From: Candidatus Moraniibacteriota bacterium
GTDB taxonomy: Bacteria; Patescibacteriota; Minisyncoccia; Moranbacterales; UBA1568
NCBI GenBank assembly: GCA_008012175.1
Contig: SSEF01000020.1
Coordinates: 24,002-88,001 of the forward strand
DNA length: 64,000 nt
Direction of reading: 5' to 3'
Shown: piece by piece, positions 18,192 through 55,189 of the stretch
Position numbering within the stretch: position 1 is the stretch's first letter
How the letters are laid out: each line of letters starts with the position of its first letter
Notes under the pieces: generated by a model
Told to the model about the DNA's origin: nothing
The model's database searches: none
Seen by the model: the letters and a program-made list of their open reading frames with translations, nothing else
Program-made: the position numbers and the translations under genes

Positions 18192-18644
18192 TTATTGGTC
18201 GAATTTCTCCAGGACGCGACGAAAACCGCGAGCCGACCCGAACGATTGATATACACTTGCGAAACGGATATAGGCCACCTCATCGACATCCTTCAACTTG
18301 TCGAGAATTATCGTGCCAATATCCCGGCTTGCGATCTGATTTTTCTTCGCTTTCTCAGCGACGGTGTACTCGATCGCACCGATGAGTTTTTCCATCCGGC
18401 CCTGATCAAACGGCCGTTTCTCGAACGCCTTCCGGAGGCCCGTTTCGATCTTCTTCCGATCGTACGGCTGGTGACTACCATCCTTCTTCACGACTGACAC
18501 GCGGAACAGTTCGGCCTGCTCATACGTCGAGAAGCGTGCCTGGCAAGACAGGCACTCGCGGCGGCGGCGGATGACGCGTCCCTCGAGCGTCTCGCGCGAG
18601 TCGGTCACTTTCGATTCCGGATGATTGCAAAACGGGCAGCGCAT
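18192..18644 (-). CDS. nrdR: Transcriptional repressor NrdR
   Basis: 150 aa. MRCPFCNHPESKVTDSRE...RRRECLSC zinc ribbon followed by an ATP-cone. Confidence 0.92.
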   Translation of the reverse strand: MRCPFCNHPESKVTDSRETLEGRVIRRRRECLSCQARFSTYEQAELFRVSVVKKDGSHQPYDRKKIETGLRKAFEKRPFDQGRMEKLIGAIEYTVAEKAKKNQIASRDIGTIILDKLKDVDEVAYIRFASVYQSFGSARGFRRVLEKFDQ

Positions 18645-18759: not shown

Positions 18760-19728
18760 TCAGAGCCGACGTGGTGGCTTCGGTCTCGGAACAACCGTGA
18801 CCACACGAGGGGCACCCTTTTTGTCAGGATAGTAATCCTTCGAGAGTACAGTCTGATCACAGCGATTCTCAAGCGGACACAGGGCACAGCTCTGTCGATA
18901 GCGTCTGAGTACGGATGGATCACTCCAGTCCGCATCCGGGTCATTGACTGCTAGGCGGCATGCCTCGCGCGAGAGCACGAAGAGGAGCTCCGAAAACAGT
19001 ACCGGGTCCATATCAAGAAATTGGTCAAGATATGACCGACCGATAGCGTCCCCAACCGCTAGGATCGGCTTCGGCGAATACGAACCCTCTGAGAGCCCGA
19101 TCATGCCCGTACTGATGAGCACTCGCAAGTGATGAAAGTCCACTGGAAACGACATGCTAATCCGCGGAATGAATCCCGCCCGCATGAGGTTGATGGAGAG
19201 GAGCGCGCACATCTTTTCCTTGAATGCGTAGAAGCCCCGATCCCGCGGCAGGAGATCATATCGCTCCTTATTTATCACCCGGGCCCGCACTTCGGCCTCA
19301 GTCGTCACCCCCTCATACACGTTGAGGATATCGCCATCCCAACCAGCAATGAGAGTTTCAGAGTTGCGCCGCCAAGCCTCACCATAACGTTGATGCTCCG
19401 GCACCGTCACGAACACATACTCAAGCCGCCGATCAATTTCAGACGCCGAGAGCTTGGCCGCACGGTATGGATCAAAGAGTTCGGGATATTTCTTCCGAAG
19501 CTCGATCGCCCGCGCAGTCGCCATATGACTCCGCACCTTCCCCCGAAGGAGATGAGTGACAAAGAACCAGTCATTGGCTGTCCAATCAGAAAGATCTTTC
19601 GGATCCACCATATGGTGGGGTACTCTGGCCAGATGTTCTGGTAGATAAGGAAACTCGTAGTCTTCACGAGCCGGAATAAGAAGGGCGAAATTACCACGGA
19701 CCCTTCGCCAATTGGTAACGATCTCCAC
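18760..19728 (-). CDS. Hypothetical protein with a C-terminal Cys cluster (CxxCx5C)
   Basis: 322 aa. No family is confidently recognised. The C-terminal SCALCPLENRC resembles the last three Cys of an Fe-S cluster loop. Confidence 0.45.
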   Translation of the reverse strand: MEIVTNWRRVRGNFALLIPAREDYEFPYLPEHLARVPHHMVDPKDLSDWTANDWFFVTHLLRGKVRSHMATARAIELRKKYPELFDPYRAAKLSASEIDRRLEYVFVTVPEHQRYGEAWRRNSETLIAGWDGDILNVYEGVTTEAEVRARVINKERYDLLPRDRGFYAFKEKMCALLSINLMRAGFIPRISMSFPVDFHHLRVLISTGMIGLSEGSYSPKPILAVGDAIGRSYLDQFLDMDPVLFSELLFVLSREACRLAVNDPDADWSDPSVLRRYRQSCALCPLENRCDQTVLSKDYYPDKKGAPRVVTVVPRPKPPRRL

Positions 19729-19896: not shown

Positions 19897-21093
19897 TTAC
19901 TGCTTTCGGATGGTCAGAGACCGCATCAGAGCATTCAGCTGGTTGGGACTCGGGTCCAGATCACCATCCTTCCGCAAAAGATCAAACGAGCCCTCGATGC
20001 AGTCCTTTTCAAAACAATGCTCGTCCTTTCTGAGGTATTCTCGCAGCGCTTCCGAATAGAGCTCCTGTTGGAAATAGGCAAAGAACTTACCATCCTTCGA
20101 TATGCCCTGGAAGATATAGGTCGGCTGCTGCGCCGGGTCATAGGCCTGGAAATATCCTGCGTGGAGGTAGCCAACCCCATCGAAGTAGTCGCCCCGGATG
20201 ATTTGGTCCCGGTCGAGGCGACGCATCCCGGCATTGACCGGAGGAAAAGAAAAGAGTTTGCTCTCATCATCGGAAGAAAGTTTCTTACTGCCTCTGAGGT
20301 ACTGCTCCAACTTCAGGATATGCTCATAGAAATACGGGAGCGGCTCGCCGTTGCGGTGGCGCGCGAGCGCGCTGATATCGTAGATGCGGAGTTCACCTTC
20401 GGTACGAATTAACTCGTCTTCAAATTTCGTCCGCAGATAGCCGGGCTCATCGAGTTGCCATGGGACTTGCTTGTCTTCCAGATTGCCCGACGAAGGCCTC
20501 ACTGTCTCGGCATTGCTCGGGCCCCCACCTTTCCAGAGGATGTCTTCGCGGATGAGCCGCGTCTCCCCGAGGAGCTCTCTGTCATAGGCAGACACCTCGA
20601 CGAATTCTTTGTGTGGCGTATCCAGTATCTCGATGGTAACGAGTTCCTTCCCCGGTTTTTCGGGGACATAGGCCGCCACATACAGGTTCATCCCCGCTTC
20701 GGTCTGAGGCGTCGTCGCGAGCACGCGCTCGCCACTGGCTCCCGACACCGTGATGCGCACCTGGGCCGGATCGAATTTTGCGAATTCGTTCACGCCCGCC
20801 CCGATCGGGACACTCGTCCCCGTCGCAACCGTCATCTGCACTGGCGTATCATCATGGTCCGTCGGCGGTGAATACCCCCACTGGTCGAGGAGGAACCAGT
20901 AGCTCGGCGGCAGGCTCGCCGTATATGCGGCGGCCCCGGTGAGTTCTTGTCCTGCCTGATCGGTGACCGGCTCGATCACGGGCGTGTTCTGGTCGAGGAG
21001 CGAGGCGGAGTAGAGGAAAACGCCAGCGAGCACGAGTATCGTCAGTCCGGCGAAAAGGATTTTCTTTTGTTTCTGTTCGGCTTCCATGACCAC
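19897..21093 (-). CDS. Hypothetical membrane-anchored or secreted protein
   Basis: 398 aa. N-terminal signal anchor ILFAGLTILVLAGVFLY. No recognised domain. Confidence 0.5.
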   Translation of the reverse strand: MVMEAEQKQKKILFAGLTILVLAGVFLYSASLLDQNTPVIEPVTDQAGQELTGAAAYTASLPPSYWFLLDQWGYSPPTDHDDTPVQMTVATGTSVPIGAGVNEFAKFDPAQVRITVSGASGERVLATTPQTEAGMNLYVAAYVPEKPGKELVTIEILDTPHKEFVEVSAYDRELLGETRLIREDILWKGGGPSNAETVRPSSGNLEDKQVPWQLDEPGYLRTKFEDELIRTEGELRIYDISALARHRNGEPLPYFYEHILKLEQYLRGSKKLSSDDESKLFSFPPVNAGMRRLDRDQIIRGDYFDGVGYLHAGYFQAYDPAQQPTYIFQGISKDGKFFAYFQQELYSEALREYLRKDEHCFEKDCIEGSFDLLRKDGDLDPSPNQLNALMRSLTIRKQ

Positions 21094-21378
21094 TTAAGAA
21101 TTTGTTTTCCTAACAATTTCTTTTATTAGTTTAAACGCTGGCTTATAGATCGATAATAGTATTGCATCACAGTATCCATTATTCTTCTTTATTGTACCTT
21201 TCCACTTTGATCTCTGCATAGTAAATAAGATTTTTTGGAATGTCCTATACTTTTTCTGCTCAGCTAAGTTTTTTTCACGCTGTGCCAAATGCTCAAACAA
21301 TTCGAGTCGGTAAAGCTCCCCGTCGTAGTAATTTCTGTCGTGCACATGGCTACCTCTAGTATTAATTAGTGGCTCCAA
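21094..21378 (-). CDS. Hypothetical protein (AT-rich ORFan, Lys-rich)
   Basis: 94-aa ORF in a ~35% GC island. It overlaps the preceding ORF by 13 nt. Confidence 0.35.
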   Translation of the reverse strand: MEPLINTRGSHVHDRNYYDGELYRLELFEHLAQREKNLAEQKKYRTFQKILFTMQRSKWKGTIKKNNGYCDAILLSIYKPAFKLIKEIVRKTNS

Positions 21379-21848
21379 AGTTTTTGAAAATCCTTTAGAG
21401 CATCCTTCAGTTCCATTTCTAAGGCAGCGCTACAGTCGAGCTTTCTAGATTCTCTTCTTAGAAAAGAAACGAGTTTTTCAGCTCGCTTTTCAAAAATATA
21501 AACGGAGGAGAGATAATTTCCAATATGGTAAATGAACTGCTGGATTCTAGACATTCCATCTTTCCTTTTCTCTAACCCCCGTTGATACGAAGACATTATT
21601 ATAGGAAACCTCTCAAGCTGGGTTCGAGCAGACTCTAGTTGAGCAACCCTGTGACCGAACTCCTGCAACACCCGCTCTTTGTTTGTCAGTGGGAAGTTAA
21701 CGTCTTTCTCATCATGAGTTGAAATTGACTTGATAACTGATTTGGTAACACGTTTACTAGAAAAGAAATGATCAACTATAGCATTTTTTTCTTTCTTCCA
21801 TTTTTCAAAACTTTCTCTTTCTTTTTTCTCTTTTTCCTTTTGATTCAT
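21366..21848 (-). CDS. Hypothetical protein (AT-rich ORFan, Lys/Glu-rich)
   Basis: 160-aa ORF in a ~35% GC island immediately downstream of ftsZ. Confidence 0.4.
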   Translation of the reverse strand: MNQKEKEKKERESFEKWKKEKNAIVDHFFSSKRVTKSVIKSISTHDEKDVNFPLTNKERVLQEFGHRVAQLESARTQLERFPIIMSSYQRGLEKRKDGMSRIQQFIYHIGNYLSSVYIFEKRAEKLVSFLRRESRKLDCSAALEMELKDALKDFQKLWSH

Positions 21849-21892
21849 AGGATTTCCATAATATACAAAAAGCGCCCCGTAGGGCGCTTGGA

Positions 21893-23167
21893 TTATTTCT
21901 TCATCTTGCGGCGGATGAAGGCCGGGATCTCCAGGTCTTCTTCCTCGACGATGTCCTTGGACTCCTGCCGGAGGCTGAACGACTTCGGCTGGATCTTCTC
22001 TTCGATGATGAGCGGGGTCGGCTCGATCTTGCGCGACGTAAAGACTTGCGGCTCGTTCATTTCTTCCATCTCCTCGGCCGGCTCCTCGCGGCGATAGCTC
22101 GGGGTGTAGGACGCCGGAGTCTGGTTCTGCGGCTGGTTCTGCTGAGTGAGGGAACCGATAGTCGGGCTCTTGGCGCGGTTCACGAGGCCGATCGGCATCT
22201 CCTTTATCTTGCCTGAGTCGAAGCCAGTCGCCACGACCGTGATCTGGATATCGCCTTTCCGAATCTGCTCGTCCACGACGGCGCCGAAGATGACTTTCGC
22301 GTTCGGATCGATGTTTTCGGTGATGATATTGGCCGCCTCGTTGATCTCAAGCATCCCGATATCAGTCGAGCCAGAGATATTGAAGAGTACGCCCTTGGCC
22401 CCGTCGATCGAGAGCTCGAGGAGCGGGCTGTTGATAGCAGCGCGGGCCGCCTCGACGGCGCGGTTTTCACCGCTCGCGATACCGATACCCATGAGGGCGC
22501 TGCCAGAGTCCTGCATGATGGCACGGACGTCCGCAAAATCGACGTTCACGATACCGGGGCGGGTGATGAGGTCCGAGATGCCCTGCACGCCCTGGCGGAG
22601 CACGTCATCCACGATACGGAAGGCTGAGATAAGAGTGGTTTTTCGGTCAATGATAGAGAGGAGCTTGTCGTTCGGGATGGTGATGAGGGTGTCGACGCGA
22701 TCCTTCAGATTATTGAGTGCTTCCTCAGCGATAGCCCGGCGCTGCGAACCCTCGAAGGCAAACGGGCGCGTGACGACGCCAACGGTGAGCGCGCCGAGCT
22801 CCTTCGCCGTTTCTGCGACGATCGGGGCCGCACCGGAACCAGTGCCTCCGCCGAGGCCACAAGCAACGAACACCATATCGGCGCCCTTCAAGACTTCCTG
22901 GATCTCATCGCGGTTTTCCTCCGCCGCCTGGCGACCGATTTCCGGATTCATGCCGGCGCCGAGACCTTTGGTTAAGTTTTTTCCAATATGAACCTTCTCT
23001 TGGGCCTTTGAATGATGGAGTGCCTGCGCATCGGTATTGATAGCAACGAACTCGACGCCCTTGATCTTGGCATCAATCATCCGCGAAATCGCATTGTTCC
23101 CAGAGCCACCAACACCAACGACTTTGATTTTGGCAAATGTTTCGATGTCAGGTTTGATCTCGGCCAT
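21893..23167 (-). CDS. ftsZ: Cell division GTPase FtsZ
   Basis: 424 aa. Tubulin signature [10 protein letters not shown], and N-terminal [15 protein letters not shown]. Confidence 0.97.
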
Positions 23168-23301: not shown

Positions 23302-24570
23302 TCAGGGAAGAAATCGCCTAAAAACCCCTTTGGCCCTGCTGAATGTGCTGCTCCAATCCCCTGGCAACTTATTCAGAAGTTGCGAAGCGGCACCAAAAGA
23401 GAAGCGATCATTCATGTCGTTCTCTTCAGCTGAAAGAAGTAGCAATCCGACGACCGTCGCCGAGGCGGGCCCATCCACATGATCGAGAATGCCGCCCAAA
23501 GGCTTTGGATAACCGATCTGAGCCGGAAGCCGCAAGGTTCGCTTGGCGAGTTCGACCGCACCCGGAACGAGCACACCGCCGCCGGTAAGAACAACTCCGG
23601 CCGGGAGCAGCGCTTCACGATTGATGCTCTTGAGTTCGAGATTCACGTAGTGGAAAATTTCTTCGAGCCGTGCCTCGATGATCTCGGATACATGGTGACG
23701 CGAAATTTCGTCATTCTCCTGAGAATCGAATTCTGAAAGCGGGATCGATTCCTTCTTACTGATCTCGGAAGGAATCGCGTGTCCGTACTGGAGCTTCACC
23801 GCTTCAGCAACATCGATCGAGGTCCGGAGACCAATTGCGATATCGCTTGTAATATGGCTGCCACCAACCGGGAGCACTGCAAGATGAAGCAGGTCTCCAT
23901 CTTCGAAAATGGCAAGGGATGTTGTATTGGCGCCAATATTCACGATGACAACGCCGAGCTCTTTCTGTTTTGCGCTCAGGATAGCCTCGGCTGAAGCGAG
24001 CGGTTCAGCGATAAAGTGACGGGCCGAGATGCCAGAAAGCTCGAGCGATCGGATGAGGTTTTTGAGATGATTACTCCCCGTCCCAATAACAAGACTTGAG
24101 AGCTCGAGCCGAACCCCTCGAAGACCAACAGGGTCTTTGATTCCTCCCTGATCATCAAGCCGGTAGTGTTGCGGAACGACATGCAAAATCTCCTTGTTCG
24201 GTCCGAGGACGGTGCGCGCCTGGGTTTCTTCGATAATGCGGGACAGATCGTCCTCTGTCACTTCGCCGTCTGCCTTTCCGACTGCAATGACCCCGATGGC
24301 TGAACTCGCAAAAAGATCAGCGCCGGAAACAGAACATGCAACCGCATCAACTGCCGTGCCTGCCATGCGTTCAGCTGCTTCAAGCGCGGCATTAATGGAC
24401 TTGGCCACCTCCTCCGGCTGAACAACAATCCCTCGACGGATACCAACGGACGGCGCAGTTCCAACTCCGATGACTTTTAATGGTCCGTCATCATACGGAA
24501 GCTCGGCAACAACCGCACGGATTGTTGCGGAACCGATGTCGAGTCCGACAGTGTAGTGTGATTTCGCCAT
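23302..24570 (-). CDS. ftsA: Cell division protein FtsA
   Basis: 422 aa. Actin-like ATPase: VGLDIGSATIRAVV and VVTGGGVLVPG. It sits immediately upstream of ftsZ. Confidence 0.92.
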   Translation of the reverse strand: MAKSHYTVGLDIGSATIRAVVAELPYDDGPLKVIGVGTAPSVGIRRGIVVQPEEVAKSINAALEAAERMAGTAVDAVACSVSGADLFASSAIGVIAVGKADGEVTEDDLSRIIEETQARTVLGPNKEILHVVPQHYRLDDQGGIKDPVGLRGVRLELSSLVIGTGSNHLKNLIRSLELSGISARHFIAEPLASAEAILSAKQKELGVVIVNIGANTTSLAIFEDGDLLHLAVLPVGGSHITSDIAIGLRTSIDVAEAVKLQYGHAIPSEISKKESIPLSEFDSQENDEISRHHVSEIIEARLEEIFHYVNLELKSINREALLPAGVVLTGGGVLVPGAVELAKRTLRLPAQIGYPKPLGGILDHVDGPASATVVGLLLLSAEENDMNDRFSFGAASQLLNKLPGDWSSTFSRAKGVFRRFLP

Positions 24571-50128: not shown

Positions 50129-53100
50129 TTAGACTGTTTCAACGTCATCCTCTTCTTCCCCGTCCACCGAGACGGTCTTCGCCCCCTTCAGCTCGACATT
50201 GAGGCAGAGGCCCTTCAGTTCGTTCACGAGCACATGGAACGAAGCTGGAATATTTGGACTCTTGATCGCCTCGCCTTTGATGATAGACTCGTAGGCTTTC
50301 GATCGGCCGAGTACGTCGTCAGACTTGATGGTGAGCATTTCCTGGAGCGTATGCGCCGCACCGTAGCCTTCGAGCGCCCACACTTCCATTTCACCGAAGC
50401 GCTGGCCGCCGAACTGTGCCTTGCCGCCGAGCGGCTGCTGGGTGATGAGCGAGTAGGGCCCGATGGATCGCATATGAATCTTGTCGTCGACCAAGTGGTT
50501 CAGCTTCATGATATACATGACGCCGACAGTCGTCTCATTGTCATACATCTGGCCGCTCTTGCCATCGACGAGGCGGATCTTGCCGCTTTCTGGCAGGCCA
50601 GCTTCCTTGAGCTGCGCTTTGATATCGGTCTCCGTGACACCGTCGAGAGATGAGCTCGCGACCTTGTAGCCGAGCGTCGAAGCCGCCCAGCCGAGATGCG
50701 TCTCGAGGATCTGTCCGATATTCATACGGGAGGCGACACCGAGCGCGTTCAGGACGACATCGACCGGAGTACCATCCGGGAGGTACGGCATGTCCTCGAC
50801 TGGTGCGACATGGGAAATAACACCCTTGTTGCCGTGACGACCAGCCAGCTTGTCGCCGACCTGAATCTTCCTGAGCTGAGCGACGGAAATCTGGATCTGC
50901 TCGAAGACACCCATCGGGAGCTTGTCGCCCTTGTCGCGGGAGAAGATCTTCACATCGACAACCTTGCCGTGCTCGCCGTGCGGGAGATAGAGGGACGAAT
51001 CCTTCACATCGCGCGACTTCTCTCCGAAGATGACGCGGAGGAGCCGCTCTTCGGCGGTCAGATCGCCTTCGCCTTTCGGCGTGATCTTGCCGCAGAGGAT
51101 GTCGCCGGACGAAACTTCCGCACCGATGCGGATGATACCGTTTTCATCGAGGTTCTTCAGGCGGTCTTCGCCGATATTCGGGATATCGCGGGTGACGACT
51201 TCCGGCCCGAGCTTCGTATCGCGGACATCGAGAGAGAAATCTTCGATATGGATGGAGCTCCAGCGGTCGCGCTGCACGACGCGTTCGGAAATGATAATGG
51301 CGTCCTCGTAGTTGTAACCCTCCCACGGGATGAACGCGACGAGCATGTTCTGTCCGAGCGCGAGTTCGCCCTGCTCGGTCGATGCACCGTCAGCGAGGAG
51401 ATCGCCGGCATCGACTTTCTGACCCTTCGCGACGCGCGGCACCTGGTTCATGGACGTGAACGCGTTCGACTTCTCAAAGCTCTGGAGCGGGTATTCGCGA
51501 TCGAGATGCTCTTTCTTTGAGCCGACCGGCGCCTTGGAGCGGACGATGACATGGGTCGCATCGACTTCGATGACCTCACCGGCGTCAAGCGCGAGGACGA
51601 CCTGGCCCGAATCACGGGCAGCCTTGTCTTCGATACCCGTACCGATGACTGGCGACTCCGGCACGACACAGGAGACGGCCTGGCGTTGCATGTTCGAACC
51701 CATGAGGGCGCGGTTGGCATCATCATGCTCGAGGAACGGGATGAGCGCGGTCGCAATCGAGATGCACTGCTTCACGGAGACATCGATATAGTCGACGGCC
51801 TCAGCCTCGATCGTTTCCGGATGACCCTTCACGCGAGCTTCGACTTGGGTCTCATTGATATTGCGGTCGGCGTCGAGAGAGATGCCGGCATGCGCGATGA
51901 TCTTGCGATCTTCAACGATAGCGTTCAGGTACTCGATCTCGAGCGAGACGAACGGCTTCACCGCGACGGTCTCGCCTTTCTTCTTCCCGGCGACTTTCTC
52001 CGCCAGCGCTTCGGTCAGATGATCGCCCTTCTTGGCGACGCCCTCCACGGTCTCGCGGAGGATGCGACCGGTAAGCTCCTCTTTCTTCGCGGCAACCTCG
52101 TGCTTCACGATGAGGTATGGCGTCTCGAGGAACCCGTATTCGTTCACGCGGGCATAGGTCGCGAGGTGGCCGACGAGACCGATGTTCGGACCTTCTGGCG
52201 TTTCGATCGGACAGATGCGGCCGTAGTGAGAGTGGTGGACGTCACGGACTTCGAAGCCGGCGCGCTCACGGGTGAGTCCGCCCGGGCCCATGGCCGAGAG
52301 ACGACGCTTGTGCTCGAGCTCGGCGAGCGGGTTGACCTGGTCCATGAATTGCGACAACTGCGAGCTCGAGAAGAACTCCTTCACGGCGGCAGCGACCGGG
52401 CGCGGGTTGATGAGCTGCCCTGGGACGACGGTCTCGACATCGCAGGTGCTCATGCGGTCCTTGATGTTCCTCACCATGCGGTAGAGTCCGACACGGAGCT
52501 TGTTCTGGATGAGCTCGCCCACGGCGCGCACGCGACGGTTCCCGAGGTGGTCGATATCGTCCGCTTTGCCTTCCGGATCATTGTTGAGGCGGATGACCTC
52601 GCGGATGATGAGGATGAGGTCATCGATGTTCAAAACGCGGTTCTCTTCTTTGTCGGGACGATCGACTTCGAGCCGCTGGTTCAGGCGATATCGACCGACC
52701 GCGCCAAAGTCATAGCGCTCAAAATTGAAGAACATGCCGTCGATCATCTGCTTGGCATTCTCCTCGGTCGCGAGGTCGCCCGGACGCAGGCGCTTGTACA
52801 CCTCGCGATAGGCTTCGCCCTGGTTGGCGGCACCATCTTTGGCGAGGGTCGTTTCGATATAGTTGATGTCGCCCTTATCGATATCGACGAATGCCTTGCG
52901 GATCTCTTTCTCCACCATGCCGAACGCCTTGAGGAGCGCGGTCACAGCGAGCTTACGCTTGCGGTCGATCTTCACCGAGAGCACGCCGTCGAGGTCGGTC
53001 TCGATCTCGAGCCAGGCGCCGCGGTTCGGGATGATCTTCGCGCCAAAGAGCTTCTTGCCCTTCTGATACTCCATGGTGAAGAACACTCCGGGTGAGCGGA

Positions 53101-53620
53101 TGAGCTGAGAAACCACGACACGCTCGACGCCGTTGATGATGAAGGTGCCGCGTTCGGTCATGAGGGGAACTTCGCCGAGATAGATCTCCTGCTCCTTCAC
53201 TTCGCCGGTCTTCTTCATGAGGAGGACCGCCTTCGCGCGGAGCGGTGCCTCGTAGGAGATATTCTTGTCTTTCGCCACGCTTGCCGGATACTTCGGCTCG
53301 TCGAGGTAGTAGCCCGTAAGGGAAAGTTCCAGGTCCTTGCCGGTGAAGTCCGTGACCGGATTGATCTCGTCGAGGAGCTCCTGAAGGCCTTTCTTCCAGA
53401 ACCAATCATAGGAGGCCGTCTGCACCTCGATGAGGTCCGGCAGAGACACCGTGATGCGGTTCTTGAAGAACCGACGCTTCTTGAGTGAGGAACCCGTGCT
53501 GATCGCGTCCTTGACGCGCAACGTCTTGCCCTTGGTCATAGAAAAACACCCACGCCGCTCCGTCTTGCTGGCGAAAAGCAAGCCGGGGGTATGAGGATTA
53601 CGGTTATTTACTTGTCCCAA
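50129..53620 (-). CDS. rpoB: DNA-directed RNA polymerase subunit beta
   Basis: 1163 aa. The rifampicin-cluster region and the conserved GEMEVWALEGYGAA C-terminal motif. Confidence 0.97.
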   Translation of the reverse strand: MGQVNNRNPHTPGLLFASKTERRGCFSMTKGKTLRVKDAISTGSSLKKRRFFKNRITVSLPDLIEVQTASYDWFWKKGLQELLDEINPVTDFTGKDLELSLTGYYLDEPKYPASVAKDKNISYEAPLRAKAVLLMKKTGEVKEQEIYLGEVPLMTERGTFIINGVERVVVSQLIRSPGVFFTMEYQKGKKLFGAKIIPNRGAWLEIETDLDGVLSVKIDRKRKLAVTALLKAFGMVEKEIRKAFVDIDKGDINYIETTLAKDGAANQGEAYREVYKRLRPGDLATEENAKQMIDGMFFNFERYDFGAVGRYRLNQRLEVDRPDKEENRVLNIDDLILIIREVIRLNNDPEGKADDIDHLGNRRVRAVGELIQNKLRVGLYRMVRNIKDRMSTCDVETVVPGQLINPRPVAAAVKEFFSSSQLSQFMDQVNPLAELEHKRRLSAMGPGGLTRERAGFEVRDVHHSHYGRICPIETPEGPNIGLVGHLATYARVNEYGFLETPYLIVKHEVAAKKEELTGRILRETVEGVAKKGDHLTEALAEKVAGKKKGETVAVKPFVSLEIEYLNAIVEDRKIIAHAGISLDADRNINETQVEARVKGHPETIEAEAVDYIDVSVKQCISIATALIPFLEHDDANRALMGSNMQRQAVSCVVPESPVIGTGIEDKAARDSGQVVLALDAGEVIEVDATHVIVRSKAPVGSKKEHLDREYPLQSFEKSNAFTSMNQVPRVAKGQKVDAGDLLADGASTEQGELALGQNMLVAFIPWEGYNYEDAIIISERVVQRDRWSSIHIEDFSLDVRDTKLGPEVVTRDIPNIGEDRLKNLDENGIIRIGAEVSSGDILCGKITPKGEGDLTAEERLLRVIFGEKSRDVKDSSLYLPHGEHGKVVDVKIFSRDKGDKLPMGVFEQIQISVAQLRKIQVGDKLAGRHGNKGVISHVAPVEDMPYLPDGTPVDVVLNALGVASRMNIGQILETHLGWAASTLGYKVASSSLDGVTETDIKAQLKEAGLPESGKIRLVDGKSGQMYDNETTVGVMYIMKLNHLVDDKIHMRSIGPYSLITQQPLGGKAQFGGQRFGEMEVWALEGYGAAHTLQEMLTIKSDDVLGRSKAYESIIKGEAIKSPNIPASFHVLVNELKGLCLNVELKGAKTVSVDGEEEDDVETV

Positions 53621-54165: not shown

Positions 54166-54435
54166 TTATTTACTGGACATGAACGGAAGTATATCTTTTA
54201 TAAATTTCTTCTTCCTTTCGATCTCTTGAATTAAAGGCTCGTATTTAGCATCTAGCACCCGAATCTGGCCCTCAATAACGGGCATTGCAATTGTTTGACC
54301 TCTTACCTTATCTTTCTCAACATTCCAATCCTGATAGAGTCGTTCTTCCTTTCGTCTGTAGCATAGCATTACTAAAAAAGCACAGGACCAAACTAACGCA
54401 AATCCCAGAATACTTACCTTTGTTAACAGTTCCAT
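54166..54435 (-). CDS. Hypothetical small membrane protein (AT-rich)
   Basis: About 89 aa from Met23 of the 111-aa ORF. One TM helix. Local GC is about 38%. Confidence 0.3.
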   Translation of the reverse strand: MELLTKVSILGFALVWSCAFLVMLCYRRKEERLYQDWNVEKDKVRGQTIAMPVIEGQIRVLDAKYEPLIQEIERKKKFIKDILPFMSSK

Positions 54436-54439
54436 AATT

Positions 54440-55189
54440 TTATTTAAGCTTCTTCCAGTCGAATTTCCAGGGGTCAGTCTTCCTGCCCGGGGCGATATCA
54501 CCGTGGCCGACGACGGACTTTATCTTGTGGCGGCCTTTGATGTCGGCGATGAGCGCATTCACCGCTGCGTACTGCCTGTCCGTATAGCCGCTCTCCTCGG
54601 TCGCGATGATCTCGATACCGATGGAAAAGTCGTTCACGTTCTTCCGACCATCGGGCATTTTCGACGAGCCGGCATGGTAGGCGATATTCGCCTCTTCCAC
54701 CAGTCGGAGTACCGTACCAGAACGATCGATGAGGTAGTGGGCGCCCACGCCGTACTCTTCGTATTCCTCTATCGTCCGGCCGACCGAGTACACATCGCCC
54801 CCGAGCGCATTGTACGACGAGTGCAGCACGATCGTATCGATACTGCGCGGCGCGGGCGGCGTGCGGAAACCGAAGCGGAGGATGCGCGACTCGATGGACA
54901 GGCCAGCGTCTCCTTCCTTCTCTTCCTTTGGCTGGTCAACCGGCTTTTCAACTAGAACCTGAACTGGGGTAGGAGCTGGTGCTGTCGGTTTTACCTCTTC
55001 AGACGGAAGATCCGGGGTTGGGACAGATCCTTGCACGGCCGATTCCGGCGGCATAGGATCAGCCTCGAGTACAACAGCATCGTTTTCAAAAGCTATCTCG
55101 TCGAGCGGCGAATCGCCGGAAAAGCTGTGAAAAAGGCCGCCGATCGAGACGGAGAGGAAAGCGATGAGGCCGAGAAAGAGGCGGATCAT
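54440..55189 (-). CDS. N-acetylmuramoyl-L-alanine amidase (Amidase_2/PGRP fold), secreted
   Basis: 249 aa. Signal or anchor peptide. The core GAHYLIDRSGTV...AYHAG...FSIGIEI...GHGDIAP is the zinc amidase_2 signature. Confidence 0.8.
   Translation of the reverse strand: MIRLFLGLIAFLSVSIGGLFHSFSGDSPLDEIAFENDAVVLEADPMPPESAVQGSVPTPDLPSEEVKPTAPAPTPVQVLVEKPVDQPKEEKEGDAGLSIESRILRFGFRTPPAPRSIDTIVLHSSYNALGGDVYSVGRTIEEYEEYGVGAHYLIDRSGTVLRLVEEANIAYHAGSSKMPDGRKNVNDFSIGIEIIATEESGYTDRQYAAVNALIADIKGRHKIKSVVGHGDIAPGRKTDPWKFDWKKLK

Follow-up and report, generated by a model that had tools for sequence, protein, structure and literature searches.

Patescibacteria genomes hold hundreds of genomic islands and transferred genes, and both are frequent in them (PMC12455944). 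HEPN RNase toxins and abortive-infection proteins such as AbiD/AbiF, AbiV and RnlA carry a catalytic motif, R-x4-6-H, at the end of a helix and the start of the loop that follows it (PMC3710099). These are among the closest described counterparts of a locus in a metagenome-assembled genome (MAG) of Candidatus Moraniibacteriota, which we analyzed within a stretch of 64,000 nucleotides of contig SSEF01000020.1 (64 kb, hereafter the window). Directly downstream of ftsA and ftsZ, an AT-rich islet holds two open reading frames (ORFs) of 160 and 94 aa, ORF160 and ORF94, which lie on the minus strand and overlap by 13 nt, exactly as an earlier note on this DNA had described them. In our judgment, the islet quite probably represents one acquired gene of a rare protein family that sits in a variable stretch between ftsZ and nrdR, has lost a single base and was likely inactivated recently.

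Neither half of the putative gene matched any model in Pfam, PADLOC or NCBIfam, and matches to PHROGs were at noise level only, in agreement with the earlier remark that no domain is recognizable. With either half as query, word-indexed searches recovered nothing beyond the query species (Candidatus Moraniibacteriota MAG, E6Q06_03075). The sole search to reveal a family was an exhaustive phmmer run with ORF160 as query against 1.84 billion representatives, which found 17 proteins (family proteins are numbered P and loci L throughout). Nearly all of these are 230-257 aa long and ORF160 covers just their N-terminal ~150 residues (residues ~5-153), with P0003 (48% identity, E 3e-34) and P0004 (E 4e-27) as best matches. 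The C-terminal ~90 residues of the homologues correspond to ORF94, which BLASTP aligned to residues 163-247 of P0003 (E 8e-25) and residues 154-245 of P0004 (E 5e-28), and this arrangement is collinear across ~15 homologues. With full-length homologues as tblastn queries, the window was matched in two frames, the ORF160-frame match spanning 21800-21387 and the switch falling between 21387 and 21396; homology in the ORF94 frame reaches upstream of both of its candidate start codons. We built a family alignment of 16 sequences from 15 homologues and a repaired protein of 251 aa, which aligns with the others without a gap at the junction and which AlphaFold2 models as a single all-helical domain (mean predicted local distance difference test score, pLDDT, 89.9; predicted template modelling score, pTM, 0.85). 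By these alignments, ORF160 and ORF94 are one gene of ~251 codons split by a single-base frameshift, a reading that the earlier note had listed as its alternative. The 13-nt overlap, which had been taken to suggest translational coupling, is then the out-of-frame run-on of one coding sequence and as such is not a coupling signal.

Homology in the ORF160 frame runs to ...LKDALKDF and homology in the ORF94 frame begins at TLEPLINTRGSHVH (TLEPL), which leaves just TTTTCAAAAA between them. Lengthening the T run of this site to T5 gives KDFSKTLEPL, with the serine that P0003 and P0004 have, and lengthening its A run to A6 gives KDFQKTLEPL; either repair restores the P0003 spacing to RG.H.H exactly. 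The shift lies ~10 codons upstream of an R-x4-H motif, and neither fragment has both of the conserved blocks of the family, the YH.ENY helix and R-x4-H. The same T4/A5 tract is present in 11 of 11 contigs of this locus (L001-L010 and L098), which come from different samples and from NCBI, JGI, ENA and Logan and were produced by different assemblers, the comparison of tract lengths being one of assembly consensus sequences only. The identity of the locus in these contigs is 99.85-100%, and they contain zero single-nucleotide polymorphisms in the islet. The coordinates of these and other features are collected in Table 1.

Table 1. Positions of the islet, its parts and neighbors in the window (coordinates without prefix), and of inserts and partner ORFs at other loci (coordinates or names with prefix L).
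Feature	Coordinates	Strand	Remarks
AT-rich foreign islet, ~775 bp	21095..21868	.	20-nt leader and one disrupted gene; from GC, GC3 and homology breaks
ORF160, N-terminal part of disrupted gene	21366..21848	-	ATG start; residues 1-156 authentic, last 4 (LWSH) out of frame
ORF94, C-terminal part of disrupted gene	21094..21378	-	TTG start; stop codon 21094-21096; BLASTP to homologue C-termini
Frameshift site, TTTTCAAAAA	21381..21390	-	T4 at 21390-21387, A5 at 21385-21381; one base fewer than intact homologues
Y-H-x-E/G-N-Y motif	21513..21530	-	YHIGNY here; long central helix 101-136; 16-sequence alignment
R-G-x-H-x-H motif	21340..21357	-	RGSHVH here; R165-x4-H170 of repaired protein; helix end/loop start
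ftsZ intrinsic terminator hairpin	21870..21889	-	right edge of insertion; GCGCCC-loop-GGGCGC, then T run
ftsZ	21893..23167	-	conserved core gene, upstream border of islet; Pfam Tubulin E 3.5e-51, FtsZ_C E 1.3e-32
ftsA	23302-24570	-	upstream of ftsZ
p398	19897..21093	-	membrane-anchored; left border of islet; likely start ATG at 21087; GC3 0.69, host-like; no family match
p322	18760..19728	-	variable-region gene; host-like GC; no Pfam match
nrdR	18192..18644	-	Pfam Zn_ribbon_NrdR and ATP-cone
Insert in L013 (FtsZ 91%)	L013:7337-8645		low-GC HipA_C-like kinase (E 3e-7, at Pfam cut-off) and 109-aa ORF
Insert in L011	L011:7330-8139		low-GC membrane protein
Insert in L019	L019:7314-7859		NTP_transf_6 nucleotidyltransferase
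Inserts in L017, L018, L021			ClpB-like ATPases
Inserts in L018, L063			response regulators
Upstream partner ORF	L100:7683-7841, L102:2252-2401, L103:7754-7951, L106:127-342		KSFKLGRDAxTGEFVPVxKAxxNPDRYVVEHVPKxGxGD

The composition of the islet sets it apart from its host. At 21094-21890, GC is 0.369 versus a window mean of 0.535 (sd 0.035, 797-bp windows), which makes this the lowest 797-bp stretch in the whole 64 kb and a unique minimum, and the 800-bp flanks on either side each have a GC of 0.59. The AT-rich patch and the sharp drop reported in the earlier note are thus real, while the surrounding genome, which it had called high-GC, is of moderate GC (53.5%). GC at third codon positions (GC3) is 0.36-0.38 versus 0.53-0.74 in neighboring host genes, and codon choice is likewise foreign, with AGA or AGG used for 13 of 20 arginines in the islet versus 9 of 125 in host genes and ATA for 6 of 16 isoleucines versus 8 of 155. 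Both ORFs are rich in lysine and glutamate, as had been observed (24% of ORF160 and 20% of ORF94, with 13-15% in the neighbors), and because the gap in composition extends to synonymous sites, that is, to GC3 and codon choice, it does not come from amino-acid content alone. Nucleotide homology with the closest relatives (L012, L013 and L021) spans ftsZ and the terminator hairpin, ends at 21869/21867, and picks up again at 21094 with the start of the next gene (ATGGAAGCCGAACAGAAACAAAAG), which is conserved in L063 and L013. Since homology ends after the terminator and restarts at 21094, the foreign segment measures ~775 bp. We found no convincing direct or att-like repeats flanking the islet and no tRNA gene beside it, and an Rfam search gave nothing above threshold. 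Judged by its composition and by these breaks in homology, the islet is a horizontally acquired, compositionally foreign segment, as the earlier note had supposed.

For comparison, we took 80 ftsZ loci of the lineage that belong to species other than this one and whose FtsZ proteins are 73-98% identical. ORF160, ORF94 or any other family member occurs at none of the 80, so the islet is not a syntenic feature of the relatives and its description as acquired stands. In 43 of the 66 loci that hold both genes, ftsZ and nrdR are separated by at most 320 bp, versus 3248 bp in the window, and ftsZ followed directly by nrdR is the ancestral arrangement. Inserts of more than 1 kb and of unrelated content lie between the two genes in 17 of the 66 relatives, and cargo found there ranges from ATPases to response regulators (Table 1); the kinase and the 109-aa ORF of L013 form a possible toxin-antitoxin pair. 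By this comparison, the stretch from the ftsZ terminator to nrdR takes up cargo recurrently across Moraniibacteriota. Many of the species-representative MAGs (L011, L014-L018 and others) carry the title 'uncultured Bdellovibrionales bacterium', and yet they have ftsA-ftsZ-nrdR loci with FtsZ 83-93% identical to that of the genome analyzed here; the label on those records is probably wrong.

Elsewhere, the family gene has a GC below that of the surrounding contig, by 0.04-0.15, in all 12 of the other loci measured. A large serine recombinase gene adjoins it or lies within ~7 kb of it in L100, L103-105, L106 and L111, which represent four lineages, and the recombinases of L100, L103, L106 and L111 have the domain composition Resolvase+Recombinase(+Zn_ribbon_recom). 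The L103 copy lies in a 7.7-kb island with a GC of 0.37-0.47 that starts at the recombinase, in a host with a GC of 0.53-0.60. At four loci of one clade, a conserved basic ORF of 49-71 aa is found directly upstream of the family gene, at a distance of 20-60 bp; this partner ORF has no Pfam match and only weak, unannotated matches in plasmid records, and the 64-kb window holds no copy of it. Relatives of the family were found neither in IMG/VR nor among GenBank phages, and the islands that carry the gene have no recognizable phage structural genes. Cargo of genomic islands is the description that suits the family best, and the islands of several lineages come with a large serine recombinase.

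Some further features of these loci deserve mention. The family gene edges cell-division or cell-wall genes in three lineages, namely ftsA-ftsZ in the window (21095-21868), murE-ftsI-mraW in L103 (5389-12809) and ftsI-murE in L109 (5924-8726), an adjacency that may reflect chance in small genomes or a preference of integration site. In a marine MAG (L113:4802-5557, also L114 and L115), a 251-aa gene with a faint SIR2_2 match lies just upstream of the family gene, within a stretch whose GC is 0.295 versus 0.389 for the locus. In L106 (1106-5107) and in L107, tandem paralogous pairs (221-226 aa and 253-254 aa) stand next to the family gene, and beyond them lie an HTH_3 regulator and a large serine recombinase.

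The family is small, unnamed and rare, and its members are all-helical proteins of ~240 aa; searching with the family profile brought in just four more sequences, all of one distant subgroup. Y112 never varies among the 16 sequences, H108 is kept in at least 90% of them, and in a closer set of six sequences Y107, H108, N111 and Y112 are all invariant. R165 and H170 each reach at least 90% conservation across the 16 sequences, and R122, D176 and W216-K217 are the other best-conserved positions. In the AlphaFold2 model, a helix formed by residues 141-165 ends at R165 and is followed by a loop (166-176) and then by more helices, with a pLDDT of 69-77 in this segment. The polar constellation of conserved residues suggests that the protein is an enzyme. 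Pfam, NCBIfam, PADLOC and PHROGs searches with the repaired protein and its 15 homologues gave nothing beyond noise, the PADLOC results for the 16 family members being scattered single matches only (E 0.004 or weaker), and a profile search of PDB sequences gave nothing relevant. Csx1-Crn2, at rank 25, was the only fold match to contain a HEPN domain. RnlA was considered as a relative and rejected, as the single RnlA-toxin_DBD match (E 0.053) covers residues 30-65 of P0015 only, an unconserved stretch away from the conserved motif, and hhalign gave a probability of 0.05% for the family against E. coli RnlA.

These observations can be accommodated as follows. Candidatus Moraniibacteriota very probably acquired a gene of ~251 codons horizontally, and this gene came to occupy the space that follows the ftsZ terminator and precedes the next start codon, within the cargo-variable stretch from ftsZ to nrdR. 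Loss of one base in the T/A homopolymer pair then yielded the 160-aa and 94-aa ORFs, a break that parts the YH.ENY helices from the R-x4-H motif. The copy in the window is probably a stranded and recently inactivated remnant, that is, a pseudogene. We prefer this to a working module because the gene lies behind a terminator without an evident promoter, has no partner ORF and no recombinase nearby, and has its conserved blocks separated.

Several points count against this account. The single frameshift is the only lesion, with no in-frame stop besides, so that loss of function is something we infer only. The best-conserved residues are mostly intact, except that position 110, which also varies in two homologues, has glycine in place of glutamate. 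The homopolymer at the shift is slippery, and low-level restoration of the frame may be conceivable. The population is near-clonal, and selection on the islet is for that reason not measurable. As to the mechanism of insertion, the 64-kb window contains no recombinase. The host assignment of most of the homologue-bearing contigs is putative, and the family has no sequence-family match, with fold searches giving generic helical bundles only.

The alternative that survives best is that the frameshift is bypassed or reversible, so that intact protein is made under some conditions, through slipped-strand phase variation, slippage during transcription or a -1 slip of the ribosome at T TTT C or A AAA C; the site would then turn a costly or toxic gene on and off. 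The shift does fall exactly in the T4/A5 homopolymer pair, a -1 slip of tRNA-Phe on TTT would yield KDFSKTLEPL as in the homologues, and no second disabling mutation is present. Moreover, two further family copies are frameshifted: in L100 (7860-8060) the break is near residue 33, in an A9 run (TTAAAAAAAAATTAA), while in L112 (88-800) it is near residue 118, which puts disrupted family loci at ~3 of 14. However, the shift sites of the three broken copies differ (near residues 33, 118 and 156) and so define no conserved recoding site, and most homologues are in frame at the position where the window copy is shifted; breaks that recur at non-homologous positions of an A/T-rich gene have the look of decay and not of a conserved mechanism. 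The site itself offers single-tRNA slip sites only and no X XXY YYZ slippery heptamer, and the 100 nt of RNA downstream of the shift are no more folded than shuffled sequence (z = +1.0). With neither a heptamer nor downstream structure nor conservation of the site, nothing here speaks for programmed -1 ribosomal frameshifting. For efficient slippage or phase variation, 4-5 nt is also a short tract, and a phase-variable contingency locus is not supported at consensus level, the tract showing no length polymorphism in the 11 assemblies. We therefore regard a bypassed or reversible frameshift as unlikely, and continue to prefer the pseudogene.

It is much less probable still that ORF160 and ORF94 are two distinct, translationally coupled genes forming an acquired toxin-antitoxin, abortive-infection or other defense pair, as the earlier note had proposed. 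The ORFs are co-directional and overlap, the GTG at which gene callers start the second ORF (giving 83 aa) has an AGAGG-like sequence 6 nt before it, the composition is foreign, and a HipA-like pair occupies the same hotspot in a relative. Against such a pair, both ORFs are collinear parts of single ~240-aa proteins in ~15 homologues, the repaired protein is predicted to fold as one domain, homology in the ORF94 frame extends past both start codons, and neither the halves nor the family match any defense-system model in PADLOC. A type II toxin-antitoxin module was rejected for the same reason, the two ORFs being halves of one protein, and a separate small upstream ORF occurs only in L100, L102, L103 and L106. 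We give slightly less weight again to the idea that the split is an assembly or sequencing artefact and that the real gene is intact. The break lies in a homopolymer pair, but the runs are just 4 and 5 nt long, and recovery of an identical tract in 11 contigs from different samples, sources and assemblers makes an artefact very unlikely. Finally, a divergent housekeeping accessory of cell division such as SepF or ZapA, belonging with ftsA-ftsZ, is scarcely credible, for although the gene stands directly after ftsZ and family members lie near murE-ftsI in L103 and L109, none of the 80 related ftsZ loci has it, and it matches neither SepF, ZapA nor any Pfam family, has foreign codon usage, is separated from ftsZ by a conserved terminator and is frameshifted.

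Among the features that border the islet, the ftsZ terminator hairpin has 8 pairs, 6 of them G-C, in a terminator scan, and is conserved in relatives. On the other side, the next gene, p398, starts at most 6 nt from the stop codon of ORF94, and only its signal-anchor N-terminus is conserved, in L063 and L013. Homologues of p322 occur only in L015 (66% identity), L018, L021 and L063, and both p322 and p398 are missing from most relatives despite their host-like composition. In L018 and L063, p322-like genes accompany a response regulator and a gene of 366-371 aa, and in L021 an unrelated 325-aa gene. No promoter-like site is evident upstream of ORF160. A sigma-70-like promoter match (TTGGAA, 17-nt spacer, TATATT) is found inside the disrupted gene at 21495-21523 on the minus strand and could in principle drive the downstream fragment and p398. 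The window has a second, smaller low-GC patch at 54166-54501 (0.375 in 200-bp windows), which encodes a small membrane-anchored ORF and lies upstream of a 1163-aa ORF (50129-53620), putatively rpoB by the look of its sequence.

For annotation, E6Q06_03075 and the neighboring 83-aa call are best joined into one gene flagged as frameshifted; to count the islet as two ORFans, or as a toxin-antitoxin pair, would be mistaken. The locus also defines a small family of ~240-aa proteins, of which at least some belong to candidate-phyla-radiation (CPR) bacteria and which sometimes travel with large serine recombinases, together with a conserved partner ORF of ~50 aa in one clade of that family and a variable cargo site, from the ftsZ terminator to nrdR, in Moraniibacteriota, where a close relative has a HipA-like kinase. 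These are entry points for the study of gene flow and conflict systems in organisms that are not yet culturable alone. The window copy is probably inert, and on present evidence we see in the new family, the partner ORF and the hotspot a modest lead, joined to an annotation correction, and not a new kind of system.

Compared with variable islets between core genes and with the genomic islands of Patescibacteria (PMC12455944), the locus is alike in that ftsZ and nrdR flank unrelated low-GC cargo, including a toxin-type kinase, and differs from integration hotspots and islands in that the foreign part of the window is a single gene without an integrase, a tRNA target or att repeats. With integrative elements that carry a large serine recombinase, the family shares the proximity of its gene to the recombinase in L100, L103, L106 and L111, and in L103 the position inside a low-GC island; by contrast, the window copy has no recombinase within the 64 kb and no flanking repeats, and the islands have no recognizable phage structural genes. 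As in homopolymer-frameshift pseudogenes and phase-variable contingency genes, a one-base change in a homopolymer splits the ORF and there are no other lesions, whereas the tract is only 4-5 nt long and shows no length polymorphism in the 11 assemblies.

The comparison with HEPN RNase toxins and abortive-infection proteins (AbiD/AbiF, AbiV, RnlA; PMC3710099) cuts both ways. The residue after the arginine is glycine in 13 of the 15 family sequences that cover the motif and not the usual N, D or H, and the family has no HEPN or Abi sequence or profile similarity in Pfam, PADLOC, NCBIfam or PDB sequences. We therefore do not place the family within HEPN, and that the intact protein works like a HEPN toxin is conceivable but doubtful. 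With low confidence, we suggest that it may be an enzyme, possibly a HEPN-like RNase, acting in conflict between mobile element and host, and we propose such a conflict-type role, equally tentatively, from the association with mobile elements, the partner ORF of one clade and the R-x4-H motif. The fuller picture, in which an unrecognized conflict system of one protein, or of one protein with its ~50-aa partner, would ride on the serine-recombinase islands of Patescibacteria, act as a HEPN-like RNase through R-x4-H, be repeatedly turned off, or be switchable, by frameshifts at homopolymers and use the gap between the ftsZ terminator and nrdR as a dedicated landing site, seems to us rather improbable as a whole. 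What the family has in common with HEPN proteins is as follows: its protein is predicted to be all-helical, R-x4-H is near-invariant and is placed, with lower confidence (pLDDT 69-77), at a helix end and loop start by the AlphaFold2 model, a resemblance of position only, and the family has a mobile-element or island context, frequently inactivated copies and, in one clade, a small partner ORF upstream.

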